Made by a program: the position numbers and the translations under genes. 64,000 bases of DNA, from the IMG/VR virus record IMGVR_UViG_3300028800_000002, positions 32,001 to 96,000 of that record. One strand, given 5' to 3'. Position 1 is the stretch's first letter. Each line of letters begins with the position of its first letter. This document shows positions 51,502 to 64,000 of this stretch, piece by piece. Origin of the DNA: a virus. The notes beneath the pieces are model-generated. The model searched no databases and was not told the origin of the DNA. It was given only the letters and a program-made list of their open reading frames with translations.

Positions 51502-53577
51502 ATGAGCATTCCTGGCGCGATGAGTATGGGCGGCGTTGGCGCCGGAGGCGGGGGTCGTTTCAATGCAACGCGGGGTCGCATCAACAATGGGTTTAGTCAG
51601 GGTGTCAACTACCCAAGCCCATTCTTTGATATCGCTCACACTTACTTGCCGGTCACGGTCAAGGGCATGTTCCGTTGGTGCAGGTATTACTTCCTCACCA
51701 ATCCCATCATCAATGCCGCGGTTTTCAAACTTTCGGAATACCCCATCACTGAGCTGCTTATCGACCATGAGGACAGCAAGGTTGCCAAGAAGTGGAAGGA
51801 ATACTTCGAAGACCACTTGAACTATCGAGCGTATCAGATTGAGTGCGGCCTCGATTACCACACGTATGGCAATTGCCTTTCAAGCTTGAGTTTCCCCTTC
51901 AAGAAGTACCTGACGTGCCCTCAATGTAAGTTCCAGGCGGAAGCCAAGCGGATACGTCCCCATTGGGTGTTCACCAATTTTGAATTCAGGTTGAGTTGCC
52001 CCAAGTGCGGTTACCTGGGTACCGCGAAGTCGAAGGACATCTACTTCAAGAACGAGGCCGGGGTTCGCGTGATGCGATGGAACCCTGAGGATGTTGAGGT
52101 AACCCACTCAGATTTGACTGGTGAGTACACGTACTTTTACAACATCCCGCCAACGATCCGCAACGACGTCATTATCGGCAAGAAGGATGCTGTCGAGAAG
52201 GTGCCTGAGGTGTTCATCCAGGCATTGAGGCAGCAGAAGGGGATTGTATTCAACCAGGATACGTTCTTCCATCTACGGCGCCCCACGCTGGCAGATCAGG
52301 ATCGTGGTTGGGGCCTGCCACTGTTGCTGCCCTGTTTGAAGGACACGTTTTACCTGCAGCTGATGAAGAAGGCACAGGAGTCCATTCTGCTCGAGCACAT
52401 TCTTCCGCTGCGTATCCTGTTTCCGCAGGCGGGTTCTGGGACTTCTGATCCTTACACAAGCATCAATCTTGTCGACTGGCGGGATCACGTAGCTACGGAA
52501 ATTGCCCGTTGGCGCATGGATCCCAATTACATCCCCATCCTGCCGTTGCCCATTGGTAACCAGACTATTGGTGGAGACGGTCGGGCACTTCTTCTCGTGC
52601 AAGAGATGCAAGCACTCAGCGAGCAGCTCATCAATGGCATGCAGGTTCCCCTCGAGTTCATCAAGGGTGGTTTGAGTTACGCTGGCACGAACGTGTCCAT
52701 GCGCATGCTTGAGAACCAGTTTATCGTGTACCTGTCGCGGCATGAGAGGATGGCCAACTGGGTGATGCGGCAAGCGGCTGACTACCTCGATTGGCCGATG
52801 GCGCATATTCGATTCAAGCCGTTCAAGATGGCTGACGACATTCAGCGCAAGGCCTTCTTGTTCCAACTCAATCAAGCGAACAAGATCAGTGACACCACAC
52901 TGTTGGCGGATTCCGACTTGAGCCAGGAGGATGAGGACAACATCATGGAGCGCGAGACTGCCGCGCGCATGAAAGCGACAGAGAAGCAGCAAATGGCCAT
53001 GGCGCAGCTTCAAGGTAAGCAGCAGTCCATCATGATGAAGATGCAAGCCAAGGCTCAGCAAGAAGCCCAGCAAGCTGCTATGGCTCCGAACGCCCCTGGA
53101 GAACCAGGTGGGCCAGAGGCGAATACTGGAGCACCCGGAGGTCAGGGCGGAGTCCCCGCATTGCCATCGGCATCCCCGGATGGTGCCTCACAGGATCCAA
53201 TGCCCGCGGTACAGAGCCCGCTCAGCGCTGGACAGAATATGGGCATGGGTACTAGTGGTCCTGCGGGGCAAGCGATGTTGGGTGGTTCGAGCATCCTGGC
53301 GATGGCACAGACCATCGCGTCCCAATTGTCTCAGCAGGATCCTGCCAGTCAGATGCTTGCGATCAAGCAACTCAAAACACAGTACGGCCCAGAGCTAGCA
53401 GACTTAGTTCTGCAGTACTTGCAGACGATGCCAGGAGCTGCCCCTCAGGGACAACCTGGGCAAGGTGGCCCAGCTGGTATGCAAGCACTGGGGGCTAACG
53501 GTGCAGCTGCGACTCAAGTGGACATGCGGCCACTCCCAGACAAGCTCCCTCCGCGCAGAGCTGCAGCTACGGTTTAG
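51502..53577 (+). CDS. Probable portal protein with Zn-ribbon insertion and Q/P/G-rich tail
   Basis: NPIINAAVFKLSEYP, RWNPEDV, FFHLRR..RGWGLP, QVPLEFIKGGLSYA, IRFKPF are portal-like features. Confidence 0.75.
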   Translation: MSIPGAMSMGGVGAGGGGRFNATRGRINNGFSQGVNYPSPFFDIAHTYLPVTVKGMFRWCRYYFLTNPIINAAVFKLSEYPITELLIDHEDSKVAKKWKEYFEDHLNYRAYQIECGLDYHTYGNCLSSLSFPFKKYLTCPQCKFQAEAKRIRPHWVFTNFEFRLSCPKCGYLGTAKSKDIYFKNEAGVRVMRWNPEDVEVTHSDLTGEYTYFYNIPPTIRNDVIIGKKDAVEKVPEVFIQALRQQKGIVFNQDTFFHLRRPTLADQDRGWGLPLLLPCLKDTFYLQLMKKAQESILLEHILPLRILFPQAGSGTSDPYTSINLVDWRDHVATEIARWRMDPNYIPILPLPIGNQTIGGDGRALLLVQEMQALSEQLINGMQVPLEFIKGGLSYAGTNVSMRMLENQFIVYLSRHERMANWVMRQAADYLDWPMAHIRFKPFKMADDIQRKAFLFQLNQANKISDTTLLADSDLSQEDEDNIMERETAARMKATEKQQMAMAQLQGKQQSIMMKMQAKAQQEAQQAAMAPNAPGEPGGPEANTGAPGGQGGVPALPSASPDGASQDPMPAVQSPLSAGQNMGMGTSGPAGQAMLGGSSILAMAQTIASQLSQQDPASQMLAIKQLKTQYGPELADLVLQYLQTMPGAAPQGQPGQGGPAGMQALGANGAAATQVDMRPLPDKLPPRRAAATV

Positions 53578-54055: not shown

Positions 54056-55492
54056 TCAGGCAACTTCGGATTGGACCAGATCGTCGAGCTCGATGATTTC
54101 TCCCCACTCAGCAGGCTTTGCTTTGTAGGGTGTTGGCACGATGCACCAAATGAACTGCATGTTCTGTGGGGCTACATCAGGCGCCACACCAGCACCGTCT
54201 GTTAGGTACATCGTCATGTGCGGTCTTGGGAAGAACTCTGTGTCGACAAAGTTGATGGCTTGTCGGAAGTCTGTGCCACCTCTTCCCAATATTTCAATAG
54301 AGCGCAGATCCGCTGGAGTCACCAGGATGGGGGTGCGCTTACCATCCGTATCCGCCTCCATGAACCAGGCATGTTGGATTCCTGTCTGCAGCATAACGTC
54401 AGACATGACCTTGAGCGCGTCCGCGATTTGTCCTCTCCCCATCGATCCAGAGCTGTCTACGATGAAGAATAGAACCGGGTCGTAGCCAATGAGTCCCGGT
54501 AAGGTAATCCCCCTCAAGTAGGAGCGCTTCGAGGGGCGCCGCATGCTGTAGTCAAGTCCACCGCTGCGGATGCGCCCAATGGACAGGCGAGCCATGTTGG
54601 CCAGCTTGCTTCTCCATGGGACATCAAATACGGTTTCACTGACTTCCACCAGTTCAGCCCAACTTCCTGGTAAGGTTCCTCGACCTTGCTGGGATTCCAT
54701 GTGCTGCTTGATGGCCCGCGCTGTCTCTCTGGCTACGTTCTTGCAGTTTGCTTCTGACCGGCCTTTTTCTGCGCTCTGCTCCTTCTCCAGCTCCTTGCCG
54801 ATTGGGTTACCTGCTATGCCACCGCAGCATCCGGATAGAATTCTGGGTGAACCTTTTCCTTCAGCCTCACAGTCAGGGCAGTGGCCGCCCTCGCCGTTTT
54901 CTCCTTCCCCGTCACCCTTTCCGTGCTGGCACTTCGCGGGTTTGCTGCTCGATTTGCTCTTGCTTTCATACTGCTCGAGGAGCTTGTAGTACGCATCAGC
55001 CGTCAACCCTTCTGGGAATCCGTACTGTTCTGGCATGAGCGCCCAGTCCGGGAACTCCCACATGGGTTCAGTGACTATGTTCGATCCGTTCGACGACTTC
55101 TGGCCAGTGACACGCACCTGTTTCGTTTGCGCGCGCATTGAGCTGTTGATGAATAGATCCCCAGCGCGGTTGAATCGTTTGGGATCTTCGTAGCCAGATC
55201 CTCGCCGTACGTGAAGGAGTTGGGCATGCATGCACTCATGCATTAGGCCTGTAGCGACTACAATAGCGCTAGATGCTTCTACCCAAGCTGGGTCGTATAC
55301 GAGCACCAAGTTTGCACTTACTCCCATGGGCCCACCTACGAGCTTCATGAGATTTTCTACTGGCGATGGCACCAACGCGTACAAGGTCGAGCACATGTAG
55401 GGAGCGTATTGCTTCACATATGCTCGACCGATGACGAGAGGCGAGGCTTTTGCTCGCGCGTGCCACCCCTTACCTGAGGGGTTGCCTGCCAT
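54056..55492 (-). CDS. Putative metallopeptidase-vWA protein (DUF2201-like)
   Basis: HECMH (HExxH), SGCCGG, MIDAS VDSSGSM, GRGGTDF. Confidence 0.9.
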   Translation of the reverse strand: MAGNPSGKGWHARAKASPLVIGRAYVKQYAPYMCSTLYALVPSPVENLMKLVGGPMGVSANLVLVYDPAWVEASSAIVVATGLMHECMHAQLLHVRRGSGYEDPKRFNRAGDLFINSSMRAQTKQVRVTGQKSSNGSNIVTEPMWEFPDWALMPEQYGFPEGLTADAYYKLLEQYESKSKSSSKPAKCQHGKGDGEGENGEGGHCPDCEAEGKGSPRILSGCCGGIAGNPIGKELEKEQSAEKGRSEANCKNVARETARAIKQHMESQQGRGTLPGSWAELVEVSETVFDVPWRSKLANMARLSIGRIRSGGLDYSMRRPSKRSYLRGITLPGLIGYDPVLFFIVDSSGSMGRGQIADALKVMSDVMLQTGIQHAWFMEADTDGKRTPILVTPADLRSIEILGRGGTDFRQAINFVDTEFFPRPHMTMYLTDGAGVAPDVAPQNMQFIWCIVPTPYKAKPAEWGEIIELDDLVQSEVA

Positions 55493-55495
55493 TAT

Positions 55496-56749
55496 TTAGG
55501 TCCTTTGCTCCAAGTATTTACCGAGGCCGCTGTCTGCCAATGGCACAAGTACCAGATTGGCTGCTGCCTTGATTGCGGATTTCCCGGAAGCGTGCCCTAG
55601 ACGTTCCTTGATGAGTCCTTCCACCGCTGGAATTACAATGTCAGACAGCTCAGCGTCAAGCAGCTTGGCAATTGCTTTCCATGCCAGTGGGGCAAGGTCC
55701 TCTTGTTCTGCTCGAGTGGGGCGCTGTCTGACGTAGGCTACAGCCCCAGTATAGGCCGCAAGTACAACGTCCAGACGATCTTTGTTGATTTTCCATTTGC
55801 CGTTGAGAACGTCGAGGGGCTTGGGAAGGTCCGCCTCATGGAAGTAGCGAATGAGTTCTTCAGCAGCCCCGGATCCTACGCAGGCTTCAATCATGGCATC
55901 TCGGATTCCATCGCTCTTCTCTAGGATTCTTGCGGTGGTCCATGCCCTAGTGGCAAAGTCCCATGTGCGGTGAGAGGGCCATGCCTTGCCACAGTTCGGG
56001 TCACTCATTGGCGGGCGTTTGTGCAGCAGTGATGGATTGCTCTCGATGAAGCCAGCGAACAGGCTTTGTGCTTCAGGGTAGAGGTTTGGCCACTCATCGA
56101 TGACAGCCTTCTCGATGTCGTCCAGCGAACCTTGCAGGCGCACCGCGGAAGATCCCATAAGCCACGTGGTCCATTCGCGCGCATCTGGCCCTGGGTCTGT
56201 GATGTGGATGAATCGATTCGCTAGCGGTGGTGAAAGACGGAAGCCACAGGCTGCAATTTCCTCTGGATTCATGGCTGCAAGGATGCGCACACGGTGGGGA
56301 ATGTCCAAGTCTCCGGTGTGTCGTTCATGGATCAAGCTCATCAGCGCTCCCTGCGTTGCAGGCATAGCGCCGTTGATTTCATCGAAGAACAGAATTCCTA
56401 CCTTCTCTTTGACCATTCTCCGTATCTGAGGAAGAGGGGCGATATGGGTTGCATCACCTTTCCCGTCAGGGATGAGAGCTCCACCGAAGTCTTCTGGAGG
56501 ATGGGGCGCTGCGTAGATTGTGGACAGGTGGGTTTGCAGGGATGCAGCAATTCCCTTGATGCGTGCCGTCTTGGCGATGCCGGAATCCCCTTCAATGAGC
56601 AGTGGTAATCCCCATTTGCAGTCTGGCTTGCCTGGGTAGCCATCCATCGGCGCGGATACGGAGACTTCAATAATCTCATCGACCTCTGAGCTCTTGAGTG
56701 TGGCTCCAGACAATGCGCTTGCGGGTGCGGTAACTTTCTTAGCGGCCAT
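55496..56749 (-). CDS. MoxR/AAA_5-type AAA+ ATPase
   Basis: Walker A EGDSGIAKT, Walker B FFDEI, AAMNP, PLANRF, PSHRTW. Confidence 0.9.
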   Translation of the reverse strand: MAAKKVTAPASALSGATLKSSEVDEIIEVSVSAPMDGYPGKPDCKWGLPLLIEGDSGIAKTARIKGIAASLQTHLSTIYAAPHPPEDFGGALIPDGKGDATHIAPLPQIRRMVKEKVGILFFDEINGAMPATQGALMSLIHERHTGDLDIPHRVRILAAMNPEEIAACGFRLSPPLANRFIHITDPGPDAREWTTWLMGSSAVRLQGSLDDIEKAVIDEWPNLYPEAQSLFAGFIESNPSLLHKRPPMSDPNCGKAWPSHRTWDFATRAWTTARILEKSDGIRDAMIEACVGSGAAEELIRYFHEADLPKPLDVLNGKWKINKDRLDVVLAAYTGAVAYVRQRPTRAEQEDLAPLAWKAIAKLLDAELSDIVIPAVEGLIKERLGHASGKSAIKAAANLVLVPLADSGLGKYLEQRT

Positions 56750-58045: not shown

Positions 58046-58052
58046 GTAATTC

Positions 58053-58217
58053 TTATCTCGGATTGTTCCTGGTGTTTTTTGCTGCCTGTGCCGATTCGTT
58101 TTGGTTGACACCGAACAGACTTGCCACCAAAGTCTCGTAGCGTTGGCCGGTACTTTGTGAAGTAACTTGCTTCTTTTTGCCTCGTTGAGTAGTCTTAGTA
58201 GGCACACGCTTTTCCAT
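58053..58217 (-). CDS. 54-aa basic peptide
   Basis: MEKRVPTKTTQRGKKK...; GAGATAAGA 6 nt upstream. Confidence 0.45.
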   Translation of the reverse strand: MEKRVPTKTTQRGKKKQVTSQSTGQRYETLVASLFGVNQNESAQAAKNTRNNPR

Positions 58218-58304
58218 CAAAGCTCTTATCTCGGTGTTTCTGCAGTCCTTGCGCATATTCCATGAGCGGTTGCCTGGAGGGTGCGGTTATACTCTGGAGA
58301 ACGC

Positions 58305-61300
58305 ATGTCGTACCTGGATCCAGTCGAAGCCTTTGAACATTACCGGGATCGTTCTCTTGAAGCGATTCGAAGTCAGTTCCCAGTCGACGGGCGTAACCAA
58401 GTCTTGGAATTGGAGAAACTCGAGGTTCAGGACAACTTAGATCCTGACGATATTCGGAGCCAGCATCAAGCCAAGGTGAGCGGACAGACTTGGGGTGTGC
58501 CCGTTGTTGCTCATCTGATTTTGAGAGACAAGCTCACCGGTAAAGAAGTCCGTGCCAAGACTAGGATTGCCGATTTGCCTAAAGTCACCTGCCGGCACAG
58601 CCAGATAGTTTCGGGGCAAGAGTACCAGGTAGACAACCAGTGGCAGCTCAAGCCTGGCGCCTATGTGCGCCGTAAGCAGACTGGTCAAATAGAGACGCAG
58701 TTTCAGTCAACTAGGAAGCCATCCTTCAAAGTCACTTTTGACGATGAGTCGAAGGAATTCCGTGTTGAGTTCGGTACCAAGGCGCGCATTCCGTTGTACC
58801 CGCTGCTATCCACGCTGGGGGCATCCGACGCGGATTTGGAGAAGACTTGGGGCAAGGATATTCTTGCGGCCAACAAGGGTGCTCGTAACGTTGCGGGCGC
58901 CGTTGACAACTTTTACCGCACCACGCGTAGGGTAGACCCTCCGTCGCAAGCTGCTGCTATCAGCAATGTAACGCAGCACTTCAAGGACTTCGATTTGCGA
59001 CCTGACGCTACGGCAGTTACATTGGGTCGCCCAGCGGATCATGTAGACAGTGATGTTCTGCTGCGCGCCACCCGCAAAATGATTGATGTGCATGGTGGTG
59101 CTCCAGAGGATGATCGTGATTCTCTGATCTTCAAAGACCTGCGCAGCGTGGGGGATTTTTCCTTTGAAAAAATTCTCAAGGAAGGCCCTGCCATTCGCCG
59201 TAAGATGCAGCGCCAAATCAACGATGCGTCGTCGCCTAGGGATGTGGTTCGGCTCGAGGCCTTCAACAAACCCATCCGTGAGACCTTCTACAAGAATTCT
59301 GCCGCGCAGGTAGCCAAGCAGGTGAACCCTGTCGAGATGTTATCTGCTGCGCAGCAGACCACGGTTATGGGCCCTGGTGGAATTCAGTCGGAGAATGCCA
59401 TCCTAGACGAGGTGAAGTTCATCAATCCCTCGCACATGTGCTTCTTGGATCCTATACATACGCCTGAGGGAAGTAAGACTGGCATTACGCTGCGAATGCC
59501 CTTAGGTGTGCGTAAACATGGGATGGAGCCTCAGGTTCCTCTCTACAACACGCGTACAGGAACCACTGACTATGTGGGGCCTGCCACGTTCCTTCGTTCA
59601 CGCGTGGTGTTACCTGACCAAGTCGAGTGGCATGGAGATCACCCTGTGCAAAAGGGTCCCATGGTGAAGTGGTCAGCCCCTGGCAATGAGATTGCTGAGG
59701 GGCACTTGAAAGACGCCGACTACGTGATGCGTCATCCTTCGCAGTTCTTCAACGTCACGAGTAATCTCATTCCGTTTGTAGGCAATACATCAGGCGGCAG
59801 AGCCTCGATGGCCACTCGGCACATGGAGCAGGCCATTTCTCTTGAGCATAGGGAATCCCCCTTGGTTCAGGTGGGTACGGGACGAGACTGGCCTGGGGCC
59901 AGCACCTTTGAAGAGGTAGTTGGTACACAGGCCTCGCACCATGCCCCTGTGGCCGGCACCGTAAAGAAGGTCGGAACGGATGCCATTGTAGTTACCGACG
60001 AAGCAGGGCACGACCATGAAGTCCAGACGTATCGGAACTACCCGCTCAACGACGCGAAGTCCGTGCTGGATTCTACTGCGTTGGTCAAGCCTGGCGACCA
60101 CGTAAAGAAAGGGCAGGTGATTGCCGATACCAACTTCTCAAAGAACGGCGTCATCGCGCTGGGTACAAACTTGCGCGTGGCCTATATTCCATTCAAGGGC
60201 TACAACTTCGAAGACGGGGTCGTTGTTAGCGCTAGCGCTGCCAAGAAGTTGAGCAGCGTGCATTTGCACAAGCACAACTTGTCTGTTGACGACGACACCA
60301 TTCTGGCAAAAAGTCGTTTCCTTACGCAGCACATCGGTCTTTACAACAAAGACCAAGTCAGCATGATAGGAGACGATGGCGTTGTCCGTGTTGGCTCACG
60401 CGTGCAGCCAGGAGACCCGCTGATCTTGGCTATGAAGAAGACCACTGCCCAGGATCGCACTGGGTTGTCTGCCATCCGTAAGAGTCTGGGGGACCAGTTC
60501 TCGGATCAGTCATTGACTTGGCACGGGGAAGGTCCGGGAGAAGTTGTTGGATCTTTTCGGCACGGCGGCGAAGTAATTGTTCACGTCAAAGCCATTGAGC
60601 CCATGCAGGTGGGCGATAAGCTTGCAGGTCGTTACGGCAACAAGGGCATTGTCACCAAAGTGGTACCCGACGCGGAGATGCCACATACGAAGGATGGGGA
60701 CCCAATTGAGGTTGCACTCAACCCTTCAGGGGTGCCTGGTCGTATGAATCTTGGGCAGGTGTTCGAGACGGCAGCGAGCAAGATCGCGAAAAAGACTGGC
60801 AAGCCTTATGTAGTGAACAACTTCAACGGCTCTAACCAACTTGCCAAGTTGCAGAAGGAACTCAGCGCCCATGGCATTTCAGACACAGAAGTTCTCATTG
60901 ACCCAGTAACAGGGCACACGCTTGGACCAGCCATGGTCGGCTACCAGCACCTTATCAAGTTGCACCACCAGGTGGACAAGAAGGTCTCTGTGCGCTCTGG
61001 ACTCAATCTACCAGGGCAAGAGCCAGGTCGTTATGACATCAACATGCAGCCTTCCGGGGGCGGACACGCCGGCGGGCAGTCCATGGATCCGTTGGGTCTT
61101 TATGCGATGCTGGCGCACGGGGCCCGCGCCAATATCCGTGAGATGCAGACGTGGAAGAGCGAAGGCCCCGACATGTCGACTAGTCCCCAGAAGCAATGGC
61201 AGAGCCAGCATCATGATGTGTGGGATGCCATCCAGCATGGGGACGCGCTCCCAACACCCAAGCCCACCTTTGCCTTCAAGAAGTTTACAGATATGTTGAT

Positions 61301-64000
61301 TGGCGCTGGCATCAACATTGAAAAACGTGGGCATGAGCTTGTACTGTCCCCGTTGACGGATGCCCAGATCAAGAACCTCACGGGGGATCGTGTTCTGCCT
61401 AAGCCTGCCGAGCTGCTATACGCAAAGATCGACGCGAAAACTGGGGAGCCTCGCCCTAAGCCCGGTGGGCTCTTCGACGAGAAGCTCACTGGCGGGCATG
61501 GCGGCAAGAAGTGGAGTCGGATTGAATTGTCCGAGCCAGTTCCGAACCCAATTTTCGAGAGCTCGATCAAGGCCATTACTGGTTTGAGTTCGGATGCATA
61601 CATGTCACTAGTGGAGGGTCGTCGTGCAATTGACGCTGCCGGGCATGACGTTCCTGTTGGCAAGGGGCTGACTGGAGGAGCCGCGATTCAGCACTTGCTG
61701 TCGAATATCAACGTGGACTCCGCGTTGCGTGTAGCTAAGAAGGAGTTGAGCACGGTCCCCGCATCCAAGGTGGATTCTACGCTCAAGAAGGTCAAGCGTC
61801 TTCAAGCGCTGCAGCAGGCTGGAATGTCTCCAGCGGAGGCGTACGTGTTGCACAACCTCCCTGTGTTGCCTCCTGCAATGCGCCCGATCCCAGTATTACC
61901 TGATGGAAACTTCAGTGTTTCCGATATCAATGAGTTGTATTCCCAATTTGCCCAGGTGAATTCTCAATTGGGTGACCCAACGCTGATCCACAACCTGACA
62001 GAGGAGCAGAAAGTACCGTTACGTGCAGGCGTCTATGACGGCGTAAAGGCCCTGCAGGGTATCGGAGTCCCATATGCCGATGCTCAGTACAAAGGACTCA
62101 TTCATCAGATCCACGGGGCTCAGCCGAAGACTGGGTATTTCCAGAGCACGCTAATCAGCCGCAAGCAAGACCTCAGCATGCGGTCAACTATTGTCCCAGA
62201 GCCTTCCCTTTCTCTGGATGAGGTTGGGTTGCCGGCGGAGCATGCCATGAAGTTGTTTGCTCCGTTCGTTGTTGGGGAGTTGAAGAGGTCTGGCGTGTCG
62301 GCCACTGTTCTTGATGCGCAGAAGTTAGTTGCTAAAAACACGGTGTCCGCCCAGCGCGCATTGCGCACGGTAATGAAGGATCGCCCAGTGCTATTGAAGC
62401 GAGACCCAGCCCTGCACAAGTACAGCATCCAGGCGTTTCGCCCCAAAGTCGTTGAGGGAAATGCTGTCAAGATCCATCCCTTGGTTACTGGCGGTTACAA
62501 CGCGGACTTCGATGGGGATACTATGAGCGTGTTCGTGCCGATCAGCGATGAGGCAGTCGCAGAGGCTCGGAAGATGTTCCCCTCGAACAACTTGTTTAGT
62601 GAGGCCACAGGTAGTGCGATGTACCAACCTACGTTGGAATCTGCGCTGGGGTTGTACAAGCTTTCGCGTGTGAATGATGGCAAGGCTCATGATATGTCAC
62701 ACCCTGCAGCAGCGTTACTCGCGGTGCAGAGCGGCAAGATCAACGTCAATGACAAGGTAAAGATTGGCTCCCAAGTAACAACGCCAGGACGTATTCTAGT
62801 TTCCGCAGCACTACCTGAGCCCATGCAGAAGAGAATGCTTGAGGACTTGACTTTCAGCTTGGATAAGAAGGGGCTAGGCAAGCTCCTAACTCAAGTTGGT
62901 AAGGAGCATAGTAGCGACTACTCTGGTGTTGCTGATAAGCTCAAGGACATTGGGAATGGGGCCTCTAGCGGCGTTGTGACCGTGGAGCATGATGGGTTTG
63001 TTGGCGCTGACCGATTGGATCCTTCGAAGCGCATGTACATCCCTGTGGGTGTGCACACGCTAGGGTTGGAGGATTTGGCTCCTGATATTACTACAAGGGA
63101 ACGGGTACTAGGTCCTGCGCGTAAGAAGGTTGAGGCTATCGAGAATAACCCGCACATGCAGGGTGCACGGGGAGATCGAGAGATCGTCAAGATTTGGGCA
63201 GATGCCACTAGCGAAATGAAGCAGGAGCATTTATCGCGGCATGCGGGCACGCCAAACAACTTGATGACGATGCACTTGTCTGGCGTGAAGCCAGGTTGGG
63301 ATCAGTACAAACAGCTGACGTTGGCACCTATGCTTGTGAAGGATGCTTCGGGCAGGACCATTACGACCCCGATCATGCACAGCTACGCCGAAGGATTGGA
63401 TACCGGCGAGTATTGGACGCAGATGCATGGCGCTAGGCACGGAGCCGTAATGAAGGTGCAGGAGGTGCGTGAGCCAGGTTACCTCTCCAAGTTGATGATG
63501 GCCAACACCATGGATATGGTGGTCTCCGGGCACGACTGCCACACTGAGCGAGGGATTTCTCTCCCAGTAACTGAGGACAGCGTGCACGATAGGTTTCTCC
63601 AGAAAGATTTTTCGGCTAAGGGCATGCATGTGGAGGCAGGTACACTGCTTACGCCTGACATAGTCTCTAAGATGCGTTCAGCTGACAGGAACGCCAAGAT
63701 TGAAGTGCGCAGCCCGCTGAAGTGTGAGCATGCGAAAGGCGTCTGTCAGAAGTGCATGGGCATCGCGTCAACCGGGCAATTACATGGGGTAGGGGAGAAC
63801 GTCGGTGTTGTCTCTGCCCAGTCGCTCGGAGAGCGCGCTATGCAGTTGACGCTGCGCGTATTCCACACGGGAGGTTCCGTGGATGTAGGCGGCGGCTCTA
63901 AGGCGTTGGGAGGTTTTGACCGTTTCAACGAGCTGATGACACTCCCAAAGAAGCTACCCAATTCCGCCACGCTGGCGATGCGCACAGGCGTTATTGAGAA
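58305..64000 (+). CDS. rpoBC: Fused beta-beta' DNA-directed RNA polymerase (3'-truncated by the window; not in ORF track)
   Basis: One frame with SD GGAGA and ATG at 58305. beta motifs: GPGG, HTPEG, GYNFED (YNFED at 60201), GDKLAGRYGNKG (60612). beta' motifs: RDPALH, YNADFDGD (NADFDGD 62499-62519), RSPLKC..CQKC, QSLGERAMQLTLRVFHTGG. Confidence 0.97.
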   Translation, partial: MSYLDPVEAFEHYRDRSLEAIRSQFPVDGRNQVLELEKLEVQDNLDPDDIRSQHQAKVSGQTWGVPVVAHLILRDKLTGKEVRAKTRIADLPKVTCRHSQIVSGQEYQVDNQWQLKPGAYVRRKQTGQIETQFQSTRKPSFKVTFDDESKEFRVEFGTKARIPLYPLLSTLGASDADLEKTWGKDILAANKGARNVAGAVDNFYRTTRRVDPPSQAAAISNVTQHFKDFDLRPDATAVTLGRPADHVDSDVLLRATRKMIDVHGGAPEDDRDSLIFKDLRSVGDFSFEKILKEGPAIRRKMQRQINDASSPRDVVRLEAFNKPIRETFYKNSAAQVAKQVNPVEMLSAAQQTTVMGPGGIQSENAILDEVKFINPSHMCFLDPIHTPEGSKTGITLRMPLGVRKHGMEPQVPLYNTRTGTTDYVGPATFLRSRVVLPDQVEWHGDHPVQKGPMVKWSAPGNEIAEGHLKDADYVMRHPSQFFNVTSNLIPFVGNTSGGRASMATRHMEQAISLEHRESPLVQVGTGRDWPGASTFEEVVGTQASHHAPVAGTVKKVGTDAIVVTDEAGHDHEVQTYRNYPLNDAKSVLDSTALVKPGDHVKKGQVIADTNFSKNGVIALGTNLRVAYIPFKGYNFEDGVVVSASAAKKLSSVHLHKHNLSVDDDTILAKSRFLTQHIGLYNKDQVSMIGDDGVVRVGSRVQPGDPLILAMKKTTAQDRTGLSAIRKSLGDQFSDQSLTWHGEGPGEVVGSFRHGGEVIVHVKAIEPMQVGDKLAGRYGNKGIVTKVVPDAEMPHTKDGDPIEVALNPSGVPGRMNLGQVFETAASKIAKKTGKPYVVNNFNGSNQLAKLQKELSAHGISDTEVLIDPVTGHTLGPAMVGYQHLIKLHHQVDKKVSVRSGLNLPGQEPGRYDINMQPSGGGHAGGQSMDPLGLYAMLAHGARANIREMQTWKSEGPDMSTSPQKQWQSQHHDVWDAIQHGDALPTPKPTFAFKKFTDMLIGAGINIEKRGHELVLSPLTDAQIKNLTGDRVLPKPAELLYAKIDAKTGEPRPKPGGLFDEKLTGGHGGKKWSRIELSEPVPNPIFESSIKAITGLSSDAYMSLVEGRRAIDAAGHDVPVGKGLTGGAAIQHLLSNINVDSALRVAKKELSTVPASKVDSTLKKVKRLQALQQAGMSPAEAYVLHNLPVLPPAMRPIPVLPDGNFSVSDINELYSQFAQVNSQLGDPTLIHNLTEEQKVPLRAGVYDGVKALQGIGVPYADAQYKGLIHQIHGAQPKTGYFQSTLISRKQDLSMRSTIVPEPSLSLDEVGLPAEHAMKLFAPFVVGELKRSGVSATVLDAQKLVAKNTVSAQRALRTVMKDRPVLLKRDPALHKYSIQAFRPKVVEGNAVKIHPLVTGGYNADFDGDTMSVFVPISDEAVAEARKMFPSNNLFSEATGSAMYQPTLESALGLYKLSRVNDGKAHDMSHPAAALLAVQSGKINVNDKVKIGSQVTTPGRILVSAALPEPMQKRMLEDLTFSLDKKGLGKLLTQVGKEHSSDYSGVADKLKDIGNGASSGVVTVEHDGFVGADRLDPSKRMYIPVGVHTLGLEDLAPDITTRERVLGPARKKVEAIENNPHMQGARGDREIVKIWADATSEMKQEHLSRHAGTPNNLMTMHLSGVKPGWDQYKQLTLAPMLVKDASGRTITTPIMHSYAEGLDTGEYWTQMHGARHGAVMKVQEVREPGYLSKLMMANTMDMVVSGHDCHTERGISLPVTEDSVHDRFLQKDFSAKGMHVEAGTLLTPDIVSKMRSADRNAKIEVRSPLKCEHAKGVCQKCMGIASTGQLHGVGENVGVVSAQSLGERAMQLTLRVFHTGGSVDVGGGSKALGGFDRFNELMTLPKKLPNSATLAMRTGVIE

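Follow-up and report, generated by a model that had tools for sequence, protein, structure and literature searches.

Can β and β′, the two large subunits of a cell-like RNA polymerase (RNAP), work as a single chain made by a phage? Cell-like RNAPs are normally built from at least four chains on an α-dimer scaffold. The question is raised by a gene at the end of a 64,000-nucleotide (nt) stretch of viral DNA, called the window below, which comprises bases 32001-96000 of the 186,443-bp IMG/VR virus record IMGVR_UViG_3300028800_000002, rated 100% complete. Judging from the alignments and structural models presented here, the best explanation is that this gene encodes the working catalytic core of a bacterial-type RNAP in one polypeptide.

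One reading frame for β and β′

In the six-frame list of open reading frames (ORFs), a plus-strand frame that begins at window position 58281 (GTG) or 58305 (ATG) is still open where the window ends. An earlier note on this DNA, made from the letters alone, had claimed a run of at least 1898 codons without a stop from 58305, and both the ORF list and the translation bear this out. When the contig was extended in the full record, the stop codon (TAA) was found 700 nt past the window end, giving a product of 2131 amino acids (aa) counted from the ATG at 58305. This ATG is likely to be the start of the RNAP gene, since a GGAG lies at 58296-58299 and the encoded N-terminus, MSYLDPVEAF, agrees with the consensus N-terminus of the family. 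The features of the gene are as follows.

58296..58299, plus strand: Shine-Dalgarno GGAG, 5 nt ahead of the ATG (sequence)
58305..64000, plus strand: in-window part (aa 1-1898 of 2131) of the single-chain ββ′ RNAP gene (frame, translation, full record)
58305..61319, plus strand: β module, aa 1-1005, with β1/β2 lobes, fork, rifampicin (Rif) region, ED motif, flap with a flap-tip-like helix, K-rich catalytic motif and C-terminal clamp part (Pfam, Salmonella RpoB alignment, fold)
59289..59372, plus strand: Rif-cluster-I equivalent, aa 329-356 (alignment)
60612..60647, plus strand: β catalytic motif GDKLAGRYGNKG, aa 770-781 (alignment)
61308..61331, plus strand: junction, GINIE (β C-terminus, about E. 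coli β1337), turn KRG, then β′ from about E. coli 10-14 (alignment, AlphaFold2)
61320..64000, plus strand: in-window part (aa 1006-1898) of the β′ module, which as a whole is aa 1006-2131 (Pfam, PDB matches, Foldseek)
61485..61514, plus strand: site of the deleted β′ N-terminal zinc (Zn)-binding domain (E. coli 64-95, Cys70/72/85/88), with a Gly-rich turn instead (alignment)
61932..62030, plus strand: β′ clamp helices, aa ~1210-1242, predicted docking site of phage σ region 2 (alignment, complex model)
62499..62519, plus strand: catalytic NADFDGD, aa 1399-1405 (translation, alignment)
63402..63512, plus strand: bridge helix, aa ~1700-1736 (alignment)
63537..63755, plus strand: second Zn site, Cys1745, Cys1807, Cys1814 and Cys1817, all conserved (alignment)
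63792..63953, plus strand: trigger loop, aa 1830-1883, with R and H of RxFH retained and no SI3 insertion (alignment)

A hidden Markov model search, as suggested in the earlier note, returned Rpb2 and then Rpb1 Pfam domains in order: Rpb2_3 (aa 335-396), Rpb2_6 (549-898; E = 6e-58), Rpb1_1 (1140-1222), Rpb1_2 (1339-1424), and Rpb1_5 (1697-1880). The top PDB sequence matches are bacterial β′ chains (E = 1e-102), and the identity to bacterial enzymes is 27-31%. The motifs were mapped in an alignment that also included other members of the family, a range of bacterial enzymes, and Salmonella RpoB and RpoC, with which E. coli numbering is shared. Every motif quoted in the note for β (GPGG, TPEG, YNFED, GDKLAGRYGNKG, and KLHH) and for β′ (NADFDGD, the bridge helix, the second Zn site, and the trigger loop) was found in the one frame and aligned to its Salmonella/E. 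coli counterpart. The F-loop is also in place in the β′ module, and the ED and K-rich GDK..GNKG motifs of β align to E. coli β 808-818 and 1060-1080. No catalytic element is missing from the protein. The β part, which had been estimated at only about 1000 aa, is aa 1-1005 by alignment.

Compared with the enterobacterial enzyme, the blocks missing from β are 1-23, βSI1 (225-341), βSI2 (932-1043), and 1126-1179, and βi11 is absent. Those missing from β′ are 64-95 (the Cys4 Zn-binding domain), SI3 (950-1134), and some of its C-terminal tail, and a few short loops are lost as well. No Cys was found in the alignment at the position of the E. coli β′ Zn-binding domain 64-95 in the phage protein, and the loss of this domain is common to the whole phage clade described below. 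In the Rif-cluster-I equivalent, E. coli D516, H526, R529, and S531 are replaced by K, A, Q, and T. The σ70-contact residues of the clamp helices are changed, in the first helix by R270S, R271Q, R275V, R278Q, and R281D and in the second by E295P and A302D.

The junction

The position of GINIE at 61308-61322, given in the earlier note, is exact; it corresponds to aa 1002-1006. AlphaFold2, run on alignments of the family, gave one model of aa 1-700 (pLDDT 84, pTM 0.78) and one of aa 560-1700 (pLDDT 84, pTM 0.72). The former superposes on bacterial β chains with TMq 0.73-0.76, and thus the β lobes are kept despite being missed by Pfam. The β′ half of the latter matches bacterial β′ chains in Foldseek. 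The structure prediction proposed in the note was thereby carried out, and confident strands flank the junction: strands 444-449 and 452-457 (model numbering) are connected by a two-residue turn with a pLDDT of ~83-87. In the model, β runs into β′ via a tight turn without a flexible linker, and the length of the junction is conserved across the family. As judged from the alignment and the model, the fusion lies where the end of β and the start of β′ come together in cellular enzymes.

Reality and abundance of the fusion

Is the fusion real? An independent ENA assembly (a MEGAHIT contig of 41.7 kb) encodes an identical protein, with two synonymous nt differences. A search of 5.8 billion proteins found more than 120 clusters of full-length homologues (2120-2160 aa, 55-83% identity) in which the junction is kept; they come from four sources and lie on contigs of up to 200 kb. 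Because an identical protein is present in a second assembly and because there are more than 120 clusters of such homologues, the ββ′ fusion is real and not an artefact. A 401-aa query centred on the junction matched 622 representatives (50% clustering) at E ≤ 1e-30, and nearly all of the best 150 of the 622 span the junction in one stretch. In IMG/VR, more than 570 relatives were found. The fetched loci L011-L050 have single ORFs, save a few truncated by the contig end and L045, which is split like the Salmonella phage Arash discussed below. A deeper fused lineage is represented by L053, a 160.5-kb genome with a direct terminal repeat, and L054 (ββ′ of 2241-2329 aa, 26-28% identity). The fused design is therefore a hallmark of a very large clade of uncultured phages and is not rare. 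The earlier note called a compact fused enzyme of this kind little characterised; the literature search found no paper describing a ββ′ fusion in this phage lineage, but the design itself is common. Cell-type RNAPs of phages as such are already known, and the single-chain form is the part for which no paper was found.

Some homologues carry intein-sized inserts of 340-511 aa after TPEG, within GDK..GNKG, or after NADFDGD. Their positions in query numbering are after aa 773 (L030 and L049), 784 (L036), 389 (L046), and 1406 (L032), and the precomputed Pfam annotation of longer homologues includes LAGLIDADG_3 and Intein_splicing. Catalytic motifs of the TPEG, GDK..GNKG, and NADFDGD type are the usual homing sites of inteins in indispensable enzymes, and I count these inserts among the signs that the gene is real and under selection.

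Eight INPHARED records filed as phages (OR844998, OR846602, OR849902, OR848788, OR847295, AGRM01000005, AFYI01000006, and CAKLQH020000005) have ordinary-looking bacterial rpoB-rpoC genes of Staphylococcus, Enterococcus, Listeria, Salmonella, or Acinetobacter and are probably bacterial contigs. A scan of genome contigs for clues to the host yielded nothing but ordinary bacterial rpoBC, with no copy that looked like part of a prophage.

A phage clade outside the sampled Bacteria

Where does the protein belong among known RNAPs? A quick IQ-TREE analysis (LG+G4) was performed on 47 concatenated ββ′ sequences (2013 columns) from 18 bacteria of at least five phyla, six mReC-type phages, and 23 phages with β joined to β′; the 18 bacteria include no Helicobacter or Wolbachia sequence. 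The three groups are apart in the tree, each with 100% SH-aLRT support. All sampled phage RNAPs in which β is joined to β′ form one 23-member clade outside the sampled Bacteria, and the comparison with cellular and other phage RNAPs called for by the earlier note thus places the protein outside these 18 bacteria. Three phages with a split β′ form a subclade within the joined clade. Thus, the β′ split is secondary.

The closest cultured phages are Vibrio phages D181, D148, and D69 and Salmonella phage Arash (identity ~31-33%). In the Arash/D69-type phages, one gene (1525-1545 aa) encodes β and the N-terminal ~490 residues of β′, and the rest is a second gene: β′ of Arash, D69, D148, and D181 is cut after about residue 1490 and the second gene lies 0.6-4.7 kb off, whereas here there is one chain. 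This phage and the Arash/D69 group have in common the clade, the β-β′ junction, the lack of the β′ Zn-binding domain, and the substituted Rif region. The portal, terminase, major capsid protein (MCP), and several virion genes are also in common at 25-32% identity, and the genome sizes are 181-187 kb. In the available part of the Arash paper, Gp206 is labelled just 'β' and the fusion goes unmentioned (PMC10585845).

The earlier note had pointed to deep-branching RNAPs in uncultured tailed phages. Such enzymes are indeed published as mReC RNAPs, with unsplit cell-like β and β′ outside the cellular clades (Weinheimer & Aylward 2020, PMC7481178), but they are another clade with separate genes. The available part of the supplementary table of that paper lists only separate genes, with β of 900-1521 aa and β′ of 887-1391 aa; the paper mentions fusion solely for crAss-like phages, and the word 'virion' is absent from it (PMC7481178). 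The mReC β is also compact (~1000 aa). However, the mReC-type proteins are 24-26% identical to this ββ′, and in the fetched loci (L055-L061 and L064) their genes are unfused, with β′ first and then β. Membership in mReC is ruled out by the fused gene, the separate clade, and the low identity. Bacterial rpoB-rpoC and the fused family have the opposite order to the mReC-type phages, with β first.

The multisubunit RNAPs of the phiKZ/AR9 type are phage-encoded, α-less, rifampicin-insensitive relatives of ββ′, one set of which is packaged for early transcription (PMC7598289). In these phages, β and β′ are each split into at least two polypeptides, there are two enzyme sets, and the specificity subunits are not of the σ type. 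In contrast, this phage has one unsplit gene, one set, and a σ-family gene, which rule out phiKZ-type membership. The PHROG matches are phrog_24349 (E = 1e-80) and phrog_25354 (E = 1e-99), while the phiKZ/AR9-type families match at E = 1e-35 to 1e-10.

In Helicobacter and Wolbachia, RpoB is naturally fused to RpoC, and β-β′ tethers have been engineered in E. coli; in all of these, the β C-terminus is likewise joined to the β′ N-terminus, and the single chain is functional. However, these enzymes are cellular and full-size, with α2 and ω, the Zn-binding domain, lineage insertions, and host σ70. The virion RNAP of phage N4 is a large single T7-like chain delivered from the virion, and the crAss-like and YonO RNAPs are single-chain two-barrel polymerases so extremely divergent that no β/β′ Pfam domains can be recognised in them, those of crAss-like phages being virion-delivered. 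Unlike the N4, crAss, and YonO enzymes, this protein carries plain bacterial-type Pfam domains.

A phage sigma factor and the missing subunits

What else of an RNAP does the genome encode? The complete genome has one place matching Rpb2_6 and one Rpb1_2 gene, with no second copy of β or β′. No match to α (PF01000) or ω (PF01192) was found in the complete 186-kb genome, although the controls were positive, and no ribosomal-protein gene is present in it. The absence of α, ω, and ribosomal-protein genes that the earlier note had reported beside the RNAP gene thus extends to the whole genome. Its conclusion that this is not a captured host rpoBC operon stands, given the position outside the sampled Bacteria and the lack of operon partners. 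A search for T7-like RNAP (PF00940) gave no match in the genome and none in the control genomes either. A sigma factor is encoded elsewhere in the genome.

165364-166125 of the full record: σ70-family protein, 253 aa (Sigma70_r3 E = 2e-11, weak r2/r4, PDB σ matches)

It is 32% identical to Arash Gp10 (E = 5e-23), its ortholog, and all seven complete core-family genomes (7/7) have one such ortholog; none was detected in an mReC-type genome. When this σ was modelled in complex with β′ aa 1006-1340, the score was 0.79, and none of three controls exceeded 0.01. Of 80 solved complexes, 58 attain the mark, as do 2 of 110 mismatched pairs. At least 48% of contacts recur between runs, and the pLDDT of the partner is 73 or more. 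In the modelled interface, σ residues 36-79 lie on the β′ clamp helices (aa 1210-1242); since the σ-clamp helix contact is a textbook interface, the model speaks for likeness to solved holoenzymes rather than for binding. The natural holoenzyme probably includes the phage σ, and since the phage encodes its own σ70-family factor, an activity assay without sigma would probably miss that form.

About 3.8 kb upstream of the σ gene lies a gene for a 521-aa protein with a lysozyme/transglycosylase-like domain (L179:2989-4551; full record 159989-161554), a kind of domain found in virion-borne or ejected proteins. The order of a lysozyme-like gene and then the σ gene echoes the arrangement of Arash gp8-gp10.

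Genome neighbourhood and a candidate promoter element

The RNAP gene lies between the portal gene and the terminase and MCP genes, 4.7 kb after the former and 6.3 kb before the large terminase gene.

51502..53577, plus strand: portal gene, 30% identical to the Arash gp204 portal (sequence comparison)

The TAA of the RNAP gene overlaps the ATG of the next gene (TAATG), which encodes 423 aa just past the window end (L002:8700-9971). This gene and one for a 719-aa protein (L002:10629-12788) follow the RNAP gene in 36 related loci. As a lead only, the Atlas features of the 423-aa protein resemble those of gp5/VgrG-type spike proteins. The 719-aa protein has a weak 70-residue C-terminal match to the Arash virion protein Gp218 (hhalign E = 0.017, probability 2.7%), and no match was found when the RNAP neighbours were compared with Arash by BLAST. 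Divergent from the RNAP gene, the genes of a MoxR-like AAA ATPase (417 aa) and a DUF2201 VWA/metallopeptidase protein (478 aa) occupy window positions 54056-56749 on the minus strand; this pair is found upstream of RNAP in ~19 related loci.

A de novo k-mer search for promoters enriched only GGGATAAG and the Shine-Dalgarno-like AGAAGGAG. About eight copies of a (G/A)GATAAG(A) element lie 14-47 nt ahead of the starts of mostly minus-strand genes, and one of them precedes the divergent operon, of which it is a candidate phage promoter.

58224..58232, minus strand: GAGATAAGA, one of ~8 copies of the element (k-mer search)

The extended form cgG(G/A)GATAAGA is followed ~8-10 nt on by AGAAGGAG and then the start codon, mostly before minus-strand genes. 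Its sites are 18270(-), 23765(-), 28687(-), 28739(+), and 174437(-) in the full record and 58224-58232(-) and 58051-58059(-) in the window. One class of promoters read by the phage enzyme may be of this form.

The 'direct terminal repeat' of the record is exactly 127 bp long. Rather than a phage end that was measured, it is likely to be a k-mer overlap left by the assembler on closing the circle.

How the enzyme may work

I consider it fairly probable, from sequence, models, and analogy with Arash, that the protein is a σ-dependent, α-less, and probably virion-delivered single-chain transcriptase. As no α or ω gene was found in the genome, the covalent β-β′ link would stand in for the bacterial α-dimer scaffold that assembles β and β′. 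Promoters would be recognised by the 253-aa phage σ, whose region 2 would dock on the β′ clamp helices, which have lost the residues that bind host σ70. With its altered Rif pocket, the enzyme is expected to be rifampicin-insensitive. The enzyme and σ would be made late, packed in the capsid, delivered with the DNA, and start transcription in the next host. One chain would guarantee a 1:1 β:β′ stoichiometry and need no reassembly after ejection. It is α-independence, σ pairing, rifampicin insensitivity, and virion delivery that I infer here, the last because of the analogy with Arash and the place of the gene in the morphogenesis block.

The particle mass spectrometry of Arash, in the available part of its report, makes Gp206 (β and the N-terminal part of β′) the most detected protein with 3516 spectra, followed by counts of 1210 for Gp216 (the rest of β′) and 467 for the σ Gp10 (PMC10585845). 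The spectra per residue computed from these published counts are ~2.3, 2.0, and 2.0, respectively, which are compatible with a 1:1:1 complex.

Several points weigh against the proposed scheme. The Arash particle list in the same source also holds metabolic enzymes, possibly carried over according to its authors (PMC10585845), and virion packaging would be transferred by analogy from a relative just ~32% identical. No σ70-type promoter or terminator was found in the scan around the RNAP gene start, and the GATAAG element cannot define a promoter because ~8 sites are too few. The σ ortholog was undetected in the distant fused genomes L053 and L054. Host α or ω could be recruited, and the phage σ could redirect the host core enzyme, like many phage sigmas. 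As for the tree, the search was short, the model was non-mixture, no archaeal or eukaryotic outgroup was included, and the composition is heterogeneous. As a side observation, the L053/L054 lineage may use another specificity factor.

Could the enzyme instead be made during infection, transcribe middle and late genes, and stay unpackaged, with the host RNAP, possibly redirected by the phage σ, reading the early genes? The single RNAP set of the genome, unlike the separate virion and non-virion enzymes of phiKZ-type phages, would fit such a division of labour, as would the common action of phage σ factors on the host core. The carry-over that the non-structural enzymes of the Arash proteome make possible is harder to invoke for the RNAP chains and σ, which are among the most abundant proteins of the particle and have similar per-residue counts in the available data. 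Moreover, the RNAP gene lies in the morphogenesis block, and its translation is coupled to that of a conserved neighbour that is putatively structural; the clamp helices lack the σ70 contacts, and the phage σ models onto them. Thus, I regard a non-virion polymerase as unlikely.

It is still less likely, indeed quite improbable, that the chain is a precursor from which a head-maturation protease, or some other protease, releases β-like and β′-like subunits, giving a mature enzyme that is multisubunit like those of other phages. Head proteases do process internal proteins in large myoviruses, and Arash-like relatives function with β′ in two pieces. However, the junction is modelled as a confident two-strand hairpin that exposes no linker and is conserved in length in the family, and the available part of the Arash report gives Gp206 as one protein with 100% peptide coverage (PMC10585845).

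The idea that the gene has no function for the phage, being either an rpoBC operon taken from a host, perhaps in decay, or a chimera made in assembly, has a negligible chance of being true. Only a general bacterial likeness (27-31% identity) speaks for a captured operon, which is ruled out by the separate clade, set apart from the sampled Bacteria on a branch supported at 100%, the fusion conserved along with the catalytic residues in hundreds of homologues, and the lack of ribosomal-protein, α, and ω partner genes. A chimera is ruled out by those fused homologues, by the frame open over 2131 codons, and by the identical protein in a second assembly.

Significance

Beyond the σ-dependent, virion-delivered transcriptase favoured above, I put forward a broader view with more hesitation and somewhat less than even confidence. 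The family could be a natural minimal bacterial-type machine, consisting of one 235-kDa ββ′ chain and a small σ, that needs no α, ω, or Zn domain, travels unfolded or compact through the tail, and is self-sufficient in the host. The fusion might then be an old adaptation to virion delivery that defines a major lineage of phages.

What would this mean? The ββ′ family is usable as a marker for deep phylogeny and is separate from the mReC clade of the literature. If the scheme is true, the α scaffold would be dispensable once β and β′ are tethered, and the enzyme would offer a direct test of what α, ω, and the β′ zinc domain are needed for. If a single ββ′ chain with its own σ suffices, no smaller bacterial-type holoenzyme would be available to structural and synthetic biology. 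The cultured relatives, Arash on Salmonella and D69 on Vibrio, make the system experimentally tractable now. Finally, host-independent and probably rifampicin-insensitive early transcription by a packaged cell-type RNAP would not be confined to nucleus-forming jumbo phages.

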